Origin: Candidatus Gottesmanbacteria bacterium
GTDB taxonomy: Bacteria; Patescibacteriota; Microgenomatia; UBA10105; UBA927
Assembly: GCA_030679255.1 (NCBI GenBank)
Contig: JAUXTO010000013.1
Coordinates: 190,189 to 254,188 of the forward strand
Length of the DNA stretch: 64,000 nt
Direction of reading: 5' to 3'
Shown: piece by piece, positions 292 to 41,122 of the stretch
Numbering within the stretch: position 1 is the first letter of the stretch
How the letters are laid out: every line of letters begins with the position of its first letter
Made by a program: the position numbers and the translations under genes
The notes under the pieces: generated by a model
Databases searched by the model: none
What the model was told of the DNA's origin: nothing
The model's input: only the letters and a program-made list of their open reading frames with translations

Positions 292-1164
292 ATGATTTCC
301 CTTCCTATCCTATTCCCTGATGATTGGACGGATTACGAACTGTTGGATTCCGGCAATGGCATGAAGCTTGAACGGTTTGGGGAGTATACTATCGCGCGGC
401 CAGACCCACGCGCGCTTTGGAGCCCCCGCAAATCCCAAGAAGCCTGGAATAGCGCACACGCCCAATACATCCGGTCATCAAAGACAGAGGGACACTGGAG
501 TAGTCGCCTGCCTCCCCCATCCCCGTGGCTTATCCATTACCGGCATTTGACATTTCGCCTGGAGCCCACCACATTCAAGCATATTGGAATTTTTCCTGAA
601 CAAGCAGTCAATTGGGTTTGGCTTGATGAAATTATCGCACATACACCACTCTCGATACTCAATCTTTTTGCCTATACCGGAGCGGCATCTATTGCCGCAG
701 CGCTCTCAGGAGGACGGATCACGCATCTGGATAGCGTAAAAAGTACGCTCACGTGGGCACATGAAAACGCCAAACTTAATAAGGTCAATCAACAGCAAAT
801 CCGATGGATCGAGGATGACGCAATGAAGTTTGTCCTGCGGGAAAACAAACGCGGCAACACCTACGACGGTATTATCCTCGATCCACCACGGTTTGGACGC
901 GGCACAAAAGGAGAAGTTTGGAAAATTCTCGATGACCTTCCGCGACTTCTGACCGACTGTGTAACCATCTTGTCGCCGAAGCCAAAATTCATCCTCGTCA
1001 ACGCGTACACAGCAGACATTTCCGCCGTGGTTCTCGGACAACTCATAGAATCCGTTATGAAGCCATTTACAGGATCCGTAACGTATGGAGAACTTGCGCT
1101 CAAAGAATCTGGGCCTGATGGACGGATCCTCCCGAGTGGCATCTTCGCGCGATGGACTGCGTAG
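292..1164 (+). CDS. class I SAM-dependent rRNA methyltransferase (RlmI/RlmK-like, no PUA domain)
   Basis: LLDSGNGMKLERFG N-terminal motif, LNLFAYTGAASIAAA SAM-binding motif, DPPRFGRG; typical of YccW/RlmI family. Confidence 0.7.
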   Translation: MISLPILFPDDWTDYELLDSGNGMKLERFGEYTIARPDPRALWSPRKSQEAWNSAHAQYIRSSKTEGHWSSRLPPPSPWLIHYRHLTFRLEPTTFKHIGIFPEQAVNWVWLDEIIAHTPLSILNLFAYTGAASIAAALSGGRITHLDSVKSTLTWAHENAKLNKVNQQQIRWIEDDAMKFVLRENKRGNTYDGIILDPPRFGRGTKGEVWKILDDLPRLLTDCVTILSPKPKFILVNAYTADISAVVLGQLIESVMKPFTGSVTYGELALKESGPDGRILPSGIFARWTA

Positions 1165-1177
1165 TTATCCTGTAGAT

Positions 1178-2200
1178 TTAACTGTGCGCCATGCCAAATG
1201 ACTTCAGTGCATCAAAAAACCGTTGGCGGCGTTTTTCGTTCATGAGACCGGCTCTCGTCACAAATACTGTTTTCCATATCACGGTCCGGAGGCGGTAGAT
1301 ATCCATCTTCTCCTGAAAATGATCGGGGAGATTTCTTAAAGACTTGTATCCTGCGATAAGCATACTCTCCCGGGGAAAATGGGTCGCCCACGTCGGAGCC
1401 GAGGCAAGATCCAAAACCGGATCTCCAGACACTGCATTTTCCCAATCAAAAATACCGGTAATCCGGTCGCCGACGTGCATAAAATTATGATCGGCTAGAT
1501 CATGATGCACGAGCGTCCCTCTCGATATGTTCATAACAGGCCGATACTGATCAAAAAGTTTTCGTATTGAAGTTGCAATTTTTACGGTTATTTGCCCTGA
1601 ATCGGCGACAAACCGAAGATCATCATCCAGGCAAACTTCGATGTAATCAGGAAATGATTTTTTTGTTCCGATAAGATTTCCCTTTACCACCTGATCTTCA
1701 TGAAACCGACCAAATCCTTTAAGCTGAATATCTCCTAATCGCGCGACGTATTGACCCAACGCAAATGACATGCGGTCGTACTCATCTTTGGTGCCCGTAA
1801 AATGATCTTCGAGATCGCCCCCTGACAGGACTTCCTGTATCTGGAAATCGAATGGAAATACTTTTCTTGAAATGTCGACGTGGATGATGTGGTTCACAGG
1901 GATATCCAACACTGCGACCTTTTCGGTGATCAATTGTTCAAGCTTCATTTCCATCTCAGGCACCGGGATGTTGTAATTTGCGCGAAGAAGATACTCTCGA
2001 GATTGTTCCTTCGCGGTGACTCTATAGATTACATGCATCGTGCCGTAGGAATCCGGTCGAATCCATGAAGTGGCAGTCAATCCTAGCGCTTGCTTAAATA
2101 TTTTAGGAATCCAGGATACATCAAACAGTTCAAACCGTTTGGAAACAATATCAATCTCACTCTGGCTTCTATGCGCATGACGATAGTATATGTCGTTCAT
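1178..2200 (-). CDS. phosphotransferase family protein (APH/choline-kinase-like)
   Basis: HHDLADHNFM...DWENA catalytic/Brenner-like motifs of aminoglycoside phosphotransferase family. Confidence 0.6.
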   Translation of the reverse strand: MNDIYYRHAHRSQSEIDIVSKRFELFDVSWIPKIFKQALGLTATSWIRPDSYGTMHVIYRVTAKEQSREYLLRANYNIPVPEMEMKLEQLITEKVAVLDIPVNHIIHVDISRKVFPFDFQIQEVLSGGDLEDHFTGTKDEYDRMSFALGQYVARLGDIQLKGFGRFHEDQVVKGNLIGTKKSFPDYIEVCLDDDLRFVADSGQITVKIATSIRKLFDQYRPVMNISRGTLVHHDLADHNFMHVGDRITGIFDWENAVSGDPVLDLASAPTWATHFPRESMLIAGYKSLRNLPDHFQEKMDIYRLRTVIWKTVFVTRAGLMNEKRRQRFFDALKSFGMAHS

Positions 2201-8858: not shown

Positions 8859-9620
8859 TTGTACTACTCTAACATAGAGATGATAAAAAAAACGAAGAGA
8901 AAATCTGCAAAAAGAACGTCGCCCGCGAAACGTAATAAGACCGCACGCTACCGACTCGCTCTTTACACGCTCACCATGGCTATCTCTGCGATGATATACA
9001 TAGGGAGTCAGGCAGTGTTTACGCCCGCGCCTCCCTGCGCAAACTCAAAAACCTGCACCAGTGATCTCTCGGAAAAAATAGAAAATGGTGCGTTTGGTCT
9101 ATTTGCCGGACGCAAAATTGCAGCGCCGGACATAAATCTTGCTCTCGACATCACTCGCCCGAGAGTGCTGGGAACAAGCGATCCTTTGGGTGAAAAACGT
9201 ATTTACATAGACCTTTCTACGCAAATATTGTATGCATACGAAGGAACTTCCCAAATCTTCCAAACATTTGTCTCAACCGGGAGATGGAATTGGACTCCGG
9301 TTGGTAACTTCCGTATCTGGCATAAGGTGCGGTCAACCCGTATGTCCGGCGGACAGGGAGCGTCTGCTTATGACCTACCGAACGTACCGTTTGCCATGTT
9401 TTTTTATGGCGACTTTGGGATGCATGGGGCGTATTGGCATAACAACTTTGGGCATACGATGAGCCATGGGTGCGTAAATATGCGCCAAATTGACGCTGAA
9501 ACCATCTTCAACTGGTCGAATGGACCATCAAAAGAACAAAAAGGGACAATAGTATCAACATGTGATTCATTTACTGCACCGGATATCTGTACACAGGTAA
9601 ATCCGATAAATAAATTATGA
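8859..9620 (+). CDS. L,D-transpeptidase (YkuD domain)
   Basis: HGCVNM catalytic motif, N-terminal TM anchor. Confidence 0.65.
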   Translation: MYYSNIEMIKKTKRKSAKRTSPAKRNKTARYRLALYTLTMAISAMIYIGSQAVFTPAPPCANSKTCTSDLSEKIENGAFGLFAGRKIAAPDINLALDITRPRVLGTSDPLGEKRIYIDLSTQILYAYEGTSQIFQTFVSTGRWNWTPVGNFRIWHKVRSTRMSGGQGASAYDLPNVPFAMFFYGDFGMHGAYWHNNFGHTMSHGCVNMRQIDAETIFNWSNGPSKEQKGTIVSTCDSFTAPDICTQVNPINKL

Positions 9621-10270
9621 CAACAAAGCATAAAATAGTCATCGATGTCTTTATTTGCATCAGTGCTATTATCCTAGTAAGCGGTTATTCCGTGTGGCGC
9701 GTCAACCATTCAAATTCCGGTCAACTCTCCAAAGTCATAGTAGCCGGAAATACGATCCGCACAACTGTTCCGATTGTCCCGGACCCAGTATCACGGATAG
9801 ATACAGCATCACAACCTACTCCCGATGGGACGAAAAAAATAGTAATGGAAGCCACGCACAATAATAACGGGACCCTCACCTACATATTTACCTCAACCGA
9901 TGGGTCAGGAAACAACGTGCAACCTCTCTTTGACGCGGTCGTGCAAGCCTCTGCATCAGCTTCTGAGGGCATGAATGTACCGTTTAATGCATGGTCTCCG
10001 GATAATAAATATGTATTCATTCAAAAAAATGACGGTAATGCATTGGTATTTAAGGCAACGGGGGAAGAAATTATTCCGGGTCAGTATTATCTTGATGTAA
10101 AAGATGTATTTAACGCCTCTGGAAAAAAAGATACGTATCACGAAACTACCGGATGGGCATCTCCGACTCTTTTGATCGTCAACACGTTTGCCCCAGACAA
10201 TACAAAAGGCAGCTCGTATTGGTTTGAAGTTCCCTCCAAAGCCATCATCCAACTCTCCTCTTCGTTTTAA
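9617..10270 (+). CDS. hypothetical membrane-anchored secreted protein
   Basis: N-terminal TM, no recognisable domain. Confidence 0.4.
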   Translation: MTTKHKIVIDVFICISAIILVSGYSVWRVNHSNSGQLSKVIVAGNTIRTTVPIVPDPVSRIDTASQPTPDGTKKIVMEATHNNNGTLTYIFTSTDGSGNNVQPLFDAVVQASASASEGMNVPFNAWSPDNKYVFIQKNDGNALVFKATGEEIIPGQYYLDVKDVFNASGKKDTYHETTGWASPTLLIVNTFAPDNTKGSSYWFEVPSKAIIQLSSSF

Positions 10271-10312
10271 AAATTTGCTGAGTAGGTTGACAGGCCCGAT
10301 TAATCCTTATAA

Positions 10313-11239
10313 TCAATTAACTTTATTCTTTGGCTTCCCCTTAATGATTGATAATACGGTTTCGGTGGCTATTTTCGCTCTATTGAATTGCGTTCCTGCG
10401 GTAAAATAAGCTTGTTCAGGAAAAACCATGACATTCCCTTGATAATCAGTAAGCTTTTTTTCATTACTTTCAAACGCATATCCCCCTAACTTTCCACATG
10501 CCACCTTATCCAAAATATATTTTTCATCAAAAACGTGGGTATCTGACGTACTGACAATAATCGCAGTTTCTTTTAGTTGTGACAGCAATTTCTGATGAAT
10601 AGATCCTTTTAACTCCGGAGGGGTTGCGAGGGTGCTAAAAATAATATCGGCCACATCAAATAATTTTTCTAAGCTTACTGCTTTAAATAGTGTGTTCTTT
10701 TTCGTTCTATTCCAGTAATAAACATCTAATCCTAAACCCTTACAAAGTTCGGCGACTCGTTCCCCTATTCGTCCAAGTCCGATTATGCCAGCCGTTAGTC
10801 CCACTGCCTCTTTGTTTAAGTAATTGTCGTAATCCATTTTCCAATTATTTTTCACTATGAGCGGTAACTTTCGTAATAGGGAGAACATCATATAAATATT
10901 AAACTCCGCCACAGCCTCTGTCGGAGCTCCCGGAATGTTGGTCACGATAATTCCCATTTTGGCGAGTCTCCCAACATCAATCCAACTGTATGACGAGGTA
11001 GTCAAACACAAAGCCTTAAGACCCTGCATTCTTTTCACTCGTTCTATTGGGAAGGCATCCCAATTATCTTTCAAATATGCTGGATTTACGATCAAAATAT
11101 ACTCTTCCGACGAAAATAAACTTTTTACTTTTTCTAAATCGATATCATTGCCCTCAATAAACTCCACGTCATGCTTCTCCAATCTTTTCAATTGTTCTGA
11201 TCTAAAAAATATTTTTGGAAATATTATTTTGATTTTCAT
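10313..11239 (-). CDS. D-isomer-specific 2-hydroxyacid dehydrogenase, NAD-binding
   Basis: GIIGLGRIGERVAEL Rossmann motif; start set at MKIKIIF to avoid overlap. Confidence 0.7.
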   Translation of the reverse strand: MKIKIIFPKIFFRSEQLKRLEKHDVEFIEGNDIDLEKVKSLFSSEEYILIVNPAYLKDNWDAFPIERVKRMQGLKALCLTTSSYSWIDVGRLAKMGIIVTNIPGAPTEAVAEFNIYMMFSLLRKLPLIVKNNWKMDYDNYLNKEAVGLTAGIIGLGRIGERVAELCKGLGLDVYYWNRTKKNTLFKAVSLEKLFDVADIIFSTLATPPELKGSIHQKLLSQLKETAIIVSTSDTHVFDEKYILDKVACGKLGGYAFESNEKKLTDYQGNVMVFPEQAYFTAGTQFNRAKIATETVLSIIKGKPKNKVN

Positions 11240-12873: not shown

Positions 12874-12907
12874 ATCACAAAATTATGCACGTGCATAATT
12901 TTGTGAT
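12874..12907. repeat. 34-bp perfect palindrome ATCACAAAATTATGCACGTGCATAATTTTGTGAT (copy 1)
   Basis: exact match to copies at 13677 and 41089. Confidence 0.9.
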
Positions 12908-13676: not shown

Positions 13677-13710
13677 ATCACAAAATTATGCACGTGCATA
13701 ATTTTGTGAT
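13677..13710. repeat. 34-bp perfect palindrome (copy 2), 15 bp upstream of PaaX-like start
   Basis: exact repeat. Confidence 0.9.
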
Positions 13711-23598: not shown

Positions 23599-23872
23599 TT
23601 TTTCCACAAAAAAAACTCGTCCACATACCGAATATTTTCGGTACAAGGGCGAGTTCTTTCGAATCGCGGTGCCACCTTGCTTATTTCTCTCAAGCGCTCC
23701 GCTTCCTGCGACACGCTCTTTGTGCTATCACGGGCACTTCCCGTCGAGGTCTAATTTCCGAAAGGATTTCTTCTCGAGGCTCTGGCTTGTTAGGCCGTCA
23801 TCGCCTTTCGTTCAATTATAAAAGCAGTCTACCACACTACTCTTTTCTCGTCAAATTTTCTGTCAGATCAGA

Positions 23873-24226
23873 CTACTCTAGTACGACAGAAATTTTACGT
23901 AAATCCAAAACAAACTTTAATCCGGTAAGAAACTCAATACCGACCAATCCTTCGCTGCTCTTCGTAAAAAATGCACTCACCCTTTTTATTGTCTTACCGT
24001 ACCGTACCTGCACATTATAGACGGTAAACAACACTATGGTACCGTCTGCAAGCTCATACTCCTGATATCCAATAGGCTCTTGTTTCATCTGTGATTTATA
24101 CGATTCCGGCAAGACCAGTCCACCGGAAAATCCTGTATCGATCAAGCAATCAATAGCTATCCATGCGGAAAACGAGACGTCCAGACGAAGTCGCGGACTG
24201 TTGCGTAAGCCAAGATATGGATTCAT
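23873..24226 (-). CDS. retropepsin-like (clan AA) aspartic protease
   Basis: IDTGFSGGLVLP with catalytic DTG, 117 aa. Confidence 0.6.
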   Translation of the reverse strand: MNPYLGLRNSPRLRLDVSFSAWIAIDCLIDTGFSGGLVLPESYKSQMKQEPIGYQEYELADGTIVLFTVYNVQVRYGKTIKRVSAFFTKSSEGLVGIEFLTGLKFVLDLRKISVVLE

Positions 24227-24456
24227 TTGAGGACGCCGGCAACTCTGCCAACTTGGGCAATGAAGAACTGCTTTTTGGGAAATTTTGCTTTTGCCTTACT
24301 CGCGGATTCAATAGGAGTTTTACCCACAAAATACTTGCCAGAATTTACTTCAATACTAACATAGTCGGCTAAATTATATTTCTTTTCGAGCCGAGACTTA
24401 ATCTGATAATAGATCATTTTTCCTTTTTCGACAATCTCCCGTGGCGAAATGTTCAT
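24223..24456 (-). CDS. small hypothetical protein (DUF5678-like pattern) overlapping retropepsin gene by 4 bp
   Basis: 77 aa; promoter TTGTCA-17-TATACT 9 nt upstream of ATG on minus strand. Confidence 0.4.
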   Translation of the reverse strand: MNISPREIVEKGKMIYYQIKSRLEKKYNLADYVSIEVNSGKYFVGKTPIESASKAKAKFPKKQFFIAQVGRVAGVLK

Positions 24457-24738
24457 AATAACCTTAGTATATTCCCTTTTTCCCCTCTTGACAACCAGCG
24501 CCGTGAGATGATATAAAAACTATGTCCTATGGCCGCATCCAGGAATAATTTAAACGCTTTTTAATTTGAAGATGCGGCACAAGGGCTGTATCAGTAAATC
24601 CCTAGGAAGCTATTTACTGACGATCCCTATGCAAACCAACGGTCACCAATTTATTCACGTCCTCCTTATTAACCCCGCACGAAGCGGGGCGAGGGGTCGT
24701 GTGGTGATTGACTAATTTTTCTAAAAAACATTCACACG

Positions 24739-24763
24739 AACCCCGCCAATAAGCGGGGTTTTT
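24739..24763 (+). terminator. Rho-independent terminator hairpin CCCCGC-CAATAA-GCGGGG followed by TTTTT
   Basis: seen in sequence; no plus-strand CDS upstream, which implies a non-coding transcript. Confidence 0.5.
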
Positions 24764-24895
24764 GATGGCTCGTTAGTGAACAAATTCTTATTTGTGAGCT
24801 TACGAGCCGATCAATCCGCCAGCAATCGCAGCACGAGCCGCGCTACGAATAGTAGGTAAGGCGAGTGCTTAGATGCGGCGGATTATGGAGGAAAT

Positions 24896-25129
24896 ATGGG
24901 AGAATTAGTATCACAATTTGATCCGACTGACCAATCATCATCTGTAGAGGGTGAAACGGGAGGTGGTGGAGATAAAAATATACCGGAAAACCCGTGGCGA
25001 ATTCCTGGTGGTTTAGCTATTCTATGGCCAGAAGCTGTTAGATACGGATGGACGGAAGATATAGGTTTGGATTCAACACAAAAAGCTGTACTAGTAGCGA
25101 CAAAAAAATTAATTGGAGGGGAGGTGTAA
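24896..25129 (+). CDS. hypothetical small protein
   Basis: GGAGG SD 6 nt upstream of ATG; no homology recognised. Confidence 0.3.
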   Translation: MGELVSQFDPTDQSSSVEGETGGGGDKNIPENPWRIPGGLAILWPEAVRYGWTEDIGLDSTQKAVLVATKKLIGGEV

Positions 25130-25297
25130 ATGTATGATATATATTCGACAGAATAAAGAAATACCAGGCACAGGATCAGGAAGCGGCGACGGTACTTTTG
25201 AGCCAGACGCCGAACCATCTCCTCAGCCAGTACCACAACCAACGCCGAAACCTCAAAATTAAGCGGAGTTAAAATCACTAAACAATAAATTACACCA

Positions 25298-33615: not shown

Positions 33616-33810
33616 AATATTTTATTTACGCTTGCCCGCCGCAACTTTGAGTATTATTAAAAACTTACGGAGGATCCTCCCGATCTTTCCATTCGCCTTA
33701 CCTACTATTCGTAGCGCGGCTCATGGAGCGATCTTGGGAGGACGTAAGAAACAGTAATCCTCACAAATATAGTTCGGAAACTGTTTCTAACGAAGGAGGT
33801 GAAATAAATT

Positions 33811-33954
33811 ATGGCAAGCATGTATTGTGTAAAATGTCGCGCAAAGAGAGAAGACCCAAGTGCCGTCAAAGTGACAATGAAAAACGGAAAACCGGCAATG
33901 AAAGGGAAATGTCCAACGTGTGGAACCGGAATGTACAAAATCGGAGCCGCATAA
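33811..33954 (+). CDS. DUF5679-type small zinc-ribbon protein (47 aa)
   Basis: MASMYCVKCRAKRED...KGKCPTCGTGMYKIG; GGAGGTG SD 8 nt upstream; not in ORF track (<60 aa). Confidence 0.6.
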   Translation: MASMYCVKCRAKREDPSAVKVTMKNGKPAMKGKCPTCGTGMYKIGAA

Positions 33955-37094: not shown

Positions 37095-37514
37095 ATTGGT
37101 ATCCGGACGCTCGAGGGGATGGAAGACGAAAGCCTTTAATATCCCTTAGGAAAGTCCAGACAGCAGAATGCAGGGGAAGGAGTGTAAGCTCCTTGTCCGT
37201 CAGCTGACGGACCAGGTGTCCCGGTGTCGAAAGGCAACGGGAACGAGTCCTGAATTGACAGGATGAGAGAGCCACAGAGACGATCATCAACCTTTAGCCT
37301 AACGGGCTTGGTCGATGGGTGAAACGATGGTAATCCCACCCGCTGCAACCGGCGAATACACCGCCACGACGACGCATTCCGGAACCTCGCGACCTGCGGG
37401 GTGCGGTGACAAGTTTACGGGCATCGCGTCAAACGCGATTTGCCACGTTTGACGTGGCACTAGAGAAATGAGCGACTAAAAACAGAATCTGGCTTATGAG
37501 ATGCCAGTGTGCAC
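37091..37514 (+). ncRNA. rnpB: RNase P RNA (bacterial type)
   Basis: GGAAAGTCCAGAC (P4 5' strand), GGTAATCCCACCCGCTGCAACCGGCGAATA (P10/11-12 junction), ACAGAATCTGGCTTATGAG (P4 3' strand); 13-bp P1 between 37091-37103 and 37500-37512; extended -10 TGgTATAAT at 37075-37083. Confidence 0.6.
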
Positions 37515-41088: not shown

Positions 41089-41122
41089 ATCACAAAATTA
41101 TGCACGTGCATAATTTTGTGAT
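41089..41122. repeat. 34-bp perfect palindrome (copy 3), 20 bp upstream of miaA start
   Basis: exact repeat. Confidence 0.9.

Follow-up and report, generated by a model that had tools for sequence, protein, structure and literature searches.

The window analyzed here is a 64-kb stretch of DNA (64,000 nucleotides; positions 190,189 to 254,188 of contig JAUXTO010000013.1) from a Candidatus Gottesmanbacteria bacterium, and it contains two inverted copies of a 30-mer, TCGCCTTACCTACTATTCGTAGCGCGGCTC. This 30-mer forms the conserved core of an imperfect ~70-nt hairpin, H1, which is often trailed by a second module, designated H2 or H2'. Palindromic and dispersed, H1 constitutes a repeat family of the Microgenomates, ultra-small groundwater bacteria of the candidate phyla radiation (CPR). 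It is previously undescribed; no description was found in the literature on DUF5679, on repeats of CPR bacteria and Microgenomates, or on structured RNAs. With a probability of about 70%, H1 is a mobile or selfish palindromic repeat behaving like the Rickettsia palindromic elements (RPEs). This interpretation is based on its multiple copies, its patchy distribution, its occurrence in either orientation, its tolerance in RNA helices and protein loops, and its flanking duplications, as well as on the presence of the same composite at non-homologous loci.

Structure and distribution of H1

The window contains exactly two occurrences of the 30-mer, one at 24835-24864 on the minus strand (copy A) and one at 33693-33722 on the plus strand (copy B). 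Zero chance matches are expected, even with three mismatches, and the inverted, 30/30-identical repeat that had been reported in an earlier reading of the letters (the original prediction) was recovered at both sites. Similarity between the copies extends beyond the 30-mer to arms of 59 nt with 83% identity, and to ~130 nt if gaps are allowed. The assembly breaks at the 30-mer repeat, as shown independently by two Logan contigs of the same sample, one ending and one starting at 24863/24834. The hairpin of copy A folds from positions 24814-24883 of the minus strand (covariance-model match at 24809-24887, 71.3 bits, E = 1.7e-19). It is located just past the terminator of an unrelated small-RNA gene and is followed by an H2' module (24762-24814, minus strand; UUGAUCGGCUCG-UAAGCUC...-CGAGCCAUCAA), which also folds as a hairpin. 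The hairpin of copy B folds from positions 33675-33742 of the plus strand (match at 33670-33748, 78.5 bits, E = 9.4e-22) and is located between the stop codon of a 97-aa open reading frame (ORF) and the ribosome-binding site of a DUF5679 gene (33811-33954, plus strand; Pfam PF18930, E = 8e-16) encoding a 47-aa zinc-ribbon protein. The H2 module that follows copy B (33748-33787, plus strand; GAAACAG-UAAUCCUC...-CUGUUUC) ends 5 nt ahead of this ribosome-binding site, AAGGAGG. Copy B is presumably co-transcribed with the DUF5679 gene as a stable leader hairpin.

H1 comprises five stems (P1 to P5), the internal loops CUUA/AGCG, UC/UC, and UUAC/CGC, and the apical loop UAUUC. Copies A and B fold alike. 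Their cores are identical and their outer helices differ by compensatory changes (CCUCCC/GGGAGG, GAUC/GAUC, and UCCAU/AUGGA in copy B; AUCCGCC/GGCGGAU and AGCAC/GUGCU in copy A). Further compensatory changes in H1 were found in orthologous DUF5679 leaders from other samples. A first covariance model was built from six copies and a later one from alignment A8, which contains 111 distinct copies; with filters off, the model from A8 detected exactly two H1 copies in the window. The H1 hairpin is real: in the 111 copies, 86.5% of the stem cells were paired versus 71.0% in shuffles, a value reached by none of 500 shuffles, and changes on both sides of a stem involved 426 cells versus 162 in shuffles. 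Only 33-45% of the cells remained paired when the 3' partners were shifted by one to three columns. Pairing in the inner helix groups (P3/P4 and the apical helix) reached 98%. Among ~2050 stem cells, 1816 were Watson-Crick pairs, 29 were G.U, and 52 were A.C. Since these counts show no excess of G.U, neither strand of H1 is favored. Choosing a functional strand on the basis of G.U versus A.C was abandoned; the counts did not correlate with the genomic context.

Metagenomes were searched with a degenerate core pattern, in which TCGCCTT, CTATTCG, GGCTC, and GCG were fixed and the stems were left outside the pattern. The search returned at least 120 loci and 119 distinct sequences, one of which is a chance match in a GC-rich coding region, about as predicted from the information content of the pattern. 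The distribution of H1 is patchy, since only six copies were found in 1.29 Mb surrounding the DUF5679 genes of 80 Microgenomates species and most orthologous DUF5679 leaders lack H1; indeed, most of these loci are devoid of any hairpin leader. Several copies may be present on one contig, with four in L185 and two in each of seven other contigs, all of these contigs having been chosen via one copy. The pattern scan had no match in viral contigs. The Rfam scan that had been suggested earlier matched no family, either for H1 or for the neighboring small RNA: at the gathering thresholds of Rfam 15 only two tRNAs were detected in the window, and scans based on E-values (24400-24960 and the whole window) returned only terminator-like noise over the 440-bp non-coding region that contains copy A.

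Genomic contexts, orientation, and flanking repeats

Four classes of context were distinguished. In class I, found at 20 or more unrelated genes, the H1+H2 composite ends 1-5 nt ahead of the start codon or ribosome-binding site. As read from the N-termini, the products of these genes include DUF5679, L33 (twice), S21, HU, a LexA-like protein, MraZ, and secreted proteins. Four cases are exceptions to this pattern: here, a convergent tRNA gene has its 3' end no more than ~50 nt from the end of the composite. In class II (copy A, L088, L091, L111, L160, L129, and L150), H1+H2' is followed by a run of A and a GC hairpin that correspond to the terminator of the convergent transcript. The H1+H2' composites of copy A and L088 share ~85% identity despite unrelated flanking genes. 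In class III, H1 and a short hairpin are located directly upstream of a CTTGACA -35 box. Class IV consists of antisense H1 copies right behind the stop codon of rpsI, as established by translation for three contigs; several more have the same flanks.

H1 was also found in and next to genes for stable RNAs. A sense copy replaces the P3 helix of RNase P RNA in L011, L203, and L141; in L011 (RF00010, E = 9e-11), GAGGAAAGUCC comes after the H1 hairpin. An antisense copy occupies P3 in L132 (RNase P RNA at 973-1548, minus strand, E = 3e-16; H1 at 1457-1535, plus strand). H1 is present 2-36 nt ahead of the 16S rRNA gene in L129 and L185 and is located between or beside tRNA genes in L164, L090, L128, L118, and L162, mostly in antisense or divergent arrangements; in L164 and L090, an antisense copy separates tRNA-Cys from tRNA-Ser. 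The contig of L129, which holds two H1 copies, also displays signatures of a group II intron and a group I intron downstream of the 16S rRNA gene (8877-8967 and 9591-10323).

Four protein genes contain H1 in frame (L143, 1130-2239; L117, 2492-3373; L097; L125), each gaining ~26 residues. In L143, H1 splits an S1 domain of a four-domain ribosomal protein S1, and the Pfam match picks up at profile position 28 directly after the 26 residues encoded by H1. In L117, H1 splits a GT2 glycosyltransferase domain and the added peptide falls within a 32-residue gap relative to the homologue in L084. In L097 and L125, H1 is located within long ORFs, both encoding membrane proteins. In three of the four in-gene copies, the peptide encoded by H1 contains ..PSGTIRTRLTER.. 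or, in the case of L117, a close variant, ..LPGTIRTRLVER...

The orientation of H1 relative to flanking genes is random. Based on crude gene calls, 20, 18, 16, and 15 copies were distributed over the four flank arrangements. Stricter calls (ORFs of at least 110 aa) gave 13 antisense versus 7 sense copies between co-directional neighbors. Neither the consistent sense orientation nor the coherent set of downstream genes expected of a riboswitch or a cis-acting leader was observed, the downstream genes being unrelated. There is no conserved promoter upstream of H1, no position exceeding 0.18 bits, and a stand-alone small RNA (sRNA) transcribed from its own promoter was rejected on this basis.

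Flanking direct repeats were searched for in 104 copies; for each, the top-scoring local alignment between the 5' flank and the 3' region was recorded. Scores of at least 24 were obtained for 9 of the 104 copies versus 0.4 expected, and scores of at least 20 for 12 copies versus 2.8 expected. Repeats of 12-45 bp flank ~10% of the copies and shorter ones, down to 6 bp, were also detected; most copies have none. The 5' repeat stops where H1 starts, and the 3' repeat starts 0-43 nt past H1. In L149, the duplication comprises the start of a trxB-like gene (MYDVIILGSG / H1 / MEKLYDVIILGSGPAG). H1 is similarly flanked by the duplicated 5' end of a miaB-like gene, encoding its N-terminus, in L095 and by the duplicated 3' end of rpsI in L151 and L156. 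In all copies with a CTTGAY motif at the 5' edge of H1 (10 of 10), CTTGAC recurred 20-90 nt downstream, versus 4 of 98 copies otherwise (p = 2.6e-11). No flanking direct repeat was detectable at either copy of the window, and copies A and B therefore appear to be old.

A second conserved family of hairpin repeats was noticed in the same loci. Its core, ..CCUUGCGGGYGUGGAYGYAGACCACRACGCAAGGUAAG.., is present in L014 (232-298), after H1 in L158, and in L011 (~866-935). L011 and L014 also have an H2'-like module behind the terminator of the small RNA described below, the second hairpin family filling the place of H1. The occurrence of another hairpin family at the position of H1 indicates that the intergenic regions are mosaics of hairpin modules.

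Nature and origin of H1

Under the mobile or selfish reading, H1 would insert in either orientation wherever an extra hairpin or a protein loop of ~26 residues can be tolerated, i.e. in intergenic spacers, leaders and trailers of mRNAs, tRNA and rRNA spacers, the P3 helix of RNase P RNA, and protein surface loops. The target would often be duplicated over 12-45 bp upon insertion. Among known repeats, RPEs appear by analogy to be the closest to H1 in behavior, followed by REPINs, the doublets of repetitive extragenic palindromic (REP) sequences. In Rickettsia felis, 728 RPEs have been reported, including 85 in ORFs and 3 in RNA genes (PMC1166351). RPEs are, like H1, multi-copy palindromic repeats of ~100 nt found in intergenic regions, in frame in ORFs, and in RNA genes, and H1 copies exist in all three types of location. 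Both occur in small, reduced genomes and a transposase is known for neither. The resemblance is claimed for behavior only, and the host of H1 belongs to the CPR (Microgenomates) rather than to the Rickettsiales. In contrast to RPEs, H1 has strongly conserved asymmetric internal loops, replaces a whole helix of RNase P RNA in either orientation, displays long and variable flanking duplications in part of the family, and carries the modular 3' extensions H2 and H2'.

REPs and REPINs share with H1 the organization of interspersed imperfect palindromes into long hairpins, an orientation independent of neighboring genes, and the lineage specificity of the families; REPIN hairpins are also preserved by compensatory changes (PMC3116915). 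However, REPs are strictly extragenic and tied to a REP-flanked gene for a REP-associated tyrosine transposase (RAYT), whereas H1 is also found inside protein genes and RNase P RNA, and consists of a single ~70-nt hairpin rather than a doublet of short REPs. Miniature inverted-repeat transposable elements (MITEs) and mosaic repeats (Correia/NEMIS, ERIC, BOX, BIME) are, like H1, short, non-coding, hairpin-forming, and modular; they are co-transcribed with their neighbors, and target duplications are possible. MITEs have conserved terminal inverted repeats and short target duplications of fixed size (e.g. TA), whereas the outer arms of H1 vary by compensation, conservation resides in its internal loops, and its flanking repeats vary from 6 to 45 bp.

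Several observations weigh against the mobile or selfish reading. Mobility of H1 is deduced from comparisons across loci rather than between filled and empty sites of closely related strains. Searches by tblastn with approximate IS200, IS608, and RAYT queries in ~2.1 Mb of loci linked neither an IS200/IS605 or RAYT gene nor another mobilizing gene to H1, no RAYT-like gene being found near any copy; the sole match to a TnpA of this group was weak and located in L076, which has no H1. No candidate for a parent insertion sequence was present among the loci examined. Orthologous copies (in the DUF5679 leader, after rpsI, and in RNase P P3) persist across species and change by compensation, pointing to long-term selection on pairing and loops, an unusual property for DNA that is purely selfish. 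Conservation is seen in the asymmetric loops, although conservation of the loop sequences in the metagenome set (TCGCCUU, CUAUUCG, GGCUC, GCG) results in part from the construction of the pattern. The placement of class I composites, 1-5 nt away from a ribosome-binding site or start codon, departs from randomness and might be due to a function instead of a target preference. Finally, the long and variable flanking duplications match no classical mechanism of bacterial transposition.

The strong covariation of the stems, the conserved asymmetric loops, and the maintenance of orthologous copies by compensatory change would also fit a structured RNA functional in the host, H1 (with H2) acting as a protein-binding or processing/stability module in the leaders of genes with high expression, in pre-rRNA, and in RNase P RNA. 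In one version, DUF5679 would bind H1 and regulate its own synthesis via the copy present in its leader, as L7Ae does with kink-turns (K-turns). The abutment of H1+H2 to the ribosome-binding site in at least 20 genes, many of which encode small and abundant proteins (L33 twice, S21, HU, DUF5679), the formation of P3 of RNase P RNA by H1 in several genomes, and the annotation of some DUF5679 proteins as 'RNase P subunit RPR2' by the JGI speak in the same direction. Structured cis-regulatory leaders and K-turn/L7Ae modules that recur in several RNAs share with H1 covarying helices, conserved loops, and repeated use in mRNA leaders, RNase P RNA, and pre-rRNA. Unlike these, H1 is equally frequent in antisense, including between co-directional genes, in P3 of the L132 RNase P RNA, behind rpsI, and between tRNA genes; it is present in frame in coding sequences, belongs to no Rfam family, and is associated with neither a coherent gene set or regulon nor a conserved upstream promoter. 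In addition, its stems are nearly pure Watson-Crick, with an excess of G.U on neither strand, and H1 is missing from most DUF5679 genes and from most RNase P RNAs. A function for the host as the general explanation of H1 therefore seems unlikely to us. The first covariance model also matched a site in L011 that turned out to be P3 of its RNase P RNA, which had suggested the more specific idea of a DUF5679 leader mimicking P3. It was dropped as a general explanation because the RNase P RNA of the window lacks H1, as do most DUF5679 genes. The window RNase P RNA (37096-37511, plus strand; RF00010, 56.8 bits, E ~1e-15, below the gathering score of 100) has a short hairpin unrelated to H1 as P3. 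Among the matches listed, 2 of 122 precede the P4 strand of RNase P RNA (GGAAAGUCC) and none of 122 precedes the start of a DUF5679 gene.

The original prediction had interpreted the 30-mer as a possible regulatory element common to two small-protein genes, which would make it a DNA operator or another shared cis-regulatory site for the DUF5679 gene and an ORF starting at position 24896. A small ORF indeed starts no more than 90 nt from each copy (the 24896 ORF for copy A, DUF5679 for copy B), and the 30-mer copies show 30/30 identity. However, they are oppositely oriented relative to these ORFs, the 24896 ORF has no homologue, the conserved unit is a covarying hairpin of 80 nt rather than a 30-bp box, and H1 occupies at least 120 unrelated contexts, some of them inside genes. 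We consequently regard this interpretation as very improbable. It is barely credible that the two copies are recombination substrates flipping the intervening 8.8-kb segment or remnants of a composite transposon: the inverted arms (59 nt at 83% identity, 8790 nt apart) would be appropriate for such a role, but recJ, cca, and other housekeeping genes reside in the segment, L011 and many other species, with or without H1, show an identical order and orientation of its genes, and neither a recombinase nor a transposase gene is present between the copies.

A more speculative possibility, to which we give limited credence, is that H1/H2 represents a new type of mobile element. It would move via a folded single-stranded hairpin intermediate (DNA or RNA) with an unrecognized enzyme, generate target duplications of exceptional length and variability (12-45 bp), and have been repeatedly co-opted by CPR bacteria. 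If this were the case, H1/H2 would have been co-opted as P3 of RNase P RNA, as a structure of pre-rRNA and tRNA spacers, as portable mRNA leaders, and as protein loops.

The genomes of CPR bacteria (Patescibacteria) are tiny and streamlined and, to our knowledge, little non-coding or repeat annotation is available for them. H1 represents a widespread family of structured repeats, invisible to Rfam, in a major CPR lineage. It provides a handle on genome dynamics in unculturable organisms, raises the question of what moves H1, and warns against taking such repeats for regulatory motifs. RNase P RNAs of CPR bacteria have been reported to score under the Rfam cut-offs and to have helix extensions (PMC8172020). 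The presence of H1 in P3 is one concrete cause of this behavior and helps to explain these low-scoring, helix-extended RNAs.

A candidate small RNA and other features of the window

The region of 440 bp containing copy A (24457-24895) had been predicted to contain overlapping divergent promoters. The plus-strand promoter is present (TTGACA at 24488-24493, a spacer of 18 nt, and TATAAA at 24512-24517), with a TG at 24509-10 forming an extended -10 element. It was omitted by our consensus scan because its second hexamer ends in A. The promoter-like sequence of the minus strand (TTGTCA-17-TATACT, 24466-24494) was detected by the scan, with agreement at 10 of 12 positions, and would serve a 77-aa gene (24456-24223). 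Three promoter-like sites were found in the region versus 2.6 in shuffled sequence, and support for the promoters therefore rests on their conservation in other genomes. L011 and L014, in which homology was found by BLAST of fetched loci, are related Gottesmanbacteria-like genomes with the same recJ-cca neighborhood. The plus-strand promoter is kept in both, including the TG, and the minus-strand promoter is kept in L011 with the same hexamers and spacing, ahead of a 78-aa ORF located in the same position. No similarity between the 77-aa and 78-aa ORFs was detected by tblastn.

The plus-strand transcript of ~240 nt proposed in the original prediction corresponds to positions 24524-24763, if it starts as expected from the -10 box and ends at the U-run of the terminator. 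Both GC hairpins that had been noted are present, the second being an intrinsic terminator (24741-24763, plus strand; CCCCGC-CAAUAA-GCGGGG followed by U5) with stems at 24741-24746/24753-24758 and the T5 at 24759-24763. Our terminator scan missed this hairpin because the stem was extended into the run of T. The version present in L011 and L014, ~125 nt in length, keeps the 5' UAUGCAAACC, a long hairpin, and the terminator. In the long hairpin (GGUCACCA..CACGUCCUC..GAGGUCGUGUGGUGA), CACG.CCUC pairs with GAGG.CGUG. The terminator stem is CCCCGC/GCGGGG in the window and CCUCCC/GGGAGG in L011 and L014, several pairs being changed with pairing retained, and it is followed by a run of five to seven U in all three genomes. 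Changes on one side of a stem yield G.U pairs on the plus strand. Thus, a promoter and an intrinsic terminator are conserved across species in combination with no conserved ORF, and the genome comparison supports the assignment of this putative transcript as a conserved small RNA gene. It is a new candidate sRNA for the lineage, separate from H1. The claim that it contains no ORF longer than 8 codons holds for ATG starts but not for TTG, which in a mechanical call opens an ORF of 49 codons (24566-24715) with no upstream ribosome-binding site. The two strands of 24518-24768 fold equally well (-83.6 versus -86.9 kcal/mol). The conserved CCUCCU of the small RNA is largely paired, and UUAUUA is a conserved unpaired stretch. 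The small RNA would fill the rest of the 440-bp region, with its promoter back-to-back with that of the 77-aa gene.

Positions 24532-24631 are a lineage-specific insertion of 100 nt that contains two hairpins, is flanked by a direct repeat (CCTATG, 24526-31 and 24626-31), and has no counterpart in the aligned L011 and L014 sequences. It has the appearance of a further small palindromic element inserted at this site. A decayed DUF5679 paralogue, considered on the minus strand near 24690, was rejected because its AAGGAGG corresponds to the opposite strand of the conserved CCUCCU in the small RNA and because the short ORF is not kept in L014.

The 77-aa gene (24223-24456, minus strand) overlaps a second small gene, of 117 aa (23873-24226, minus strand), and neither product has a Pfam match. 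On the other side of the region, two ORFs of uncertain gene status (24896-25129 and 25124-25262, plus strand) are located between copy A and the end of recJ, with good ribosome-binding sites and no homologue in any related locus. The ORF at 24896-25129 was rejected as a conserved small gene: searches of 87 related loci and of other samples yielded no homologue, and the ORF occupying this position in L014 is not one either.

A T-box leader (~23830-23610, minus strand; RF00230, 34.7 bits, E = 5e-4) that includes AGCAAGGUGGCACCGCG and a U8-ending terminator is located upstream of genes encoding an uncharacterized 366-aa protein, an Asp/Glu racemase, and a class II aminoacyl-tRNA synthetase. Since the leader occupies this interval, the start at 23646 of the mechanically called 383-aa ORF is too far upstream. 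A perfect palindrome of 34 nt, ATCACAAAATTATGCACGTGCATAATTTTGTGAT, is present in three copies (12874-12907, 13677-13710, and 41089-41122) and resembles an operator or another repeat family. Three pairs of direct repeats were also observed: one of 65 nt (17403-17467/18000-18064), with a GC hairpin inside and AAGTCG repeats at its flanks, one of 103 nt (54898-55000/56343-56445), and one of 75 nt (60526-60600/63218-63292), which opens with tandem ATCAGCT units.

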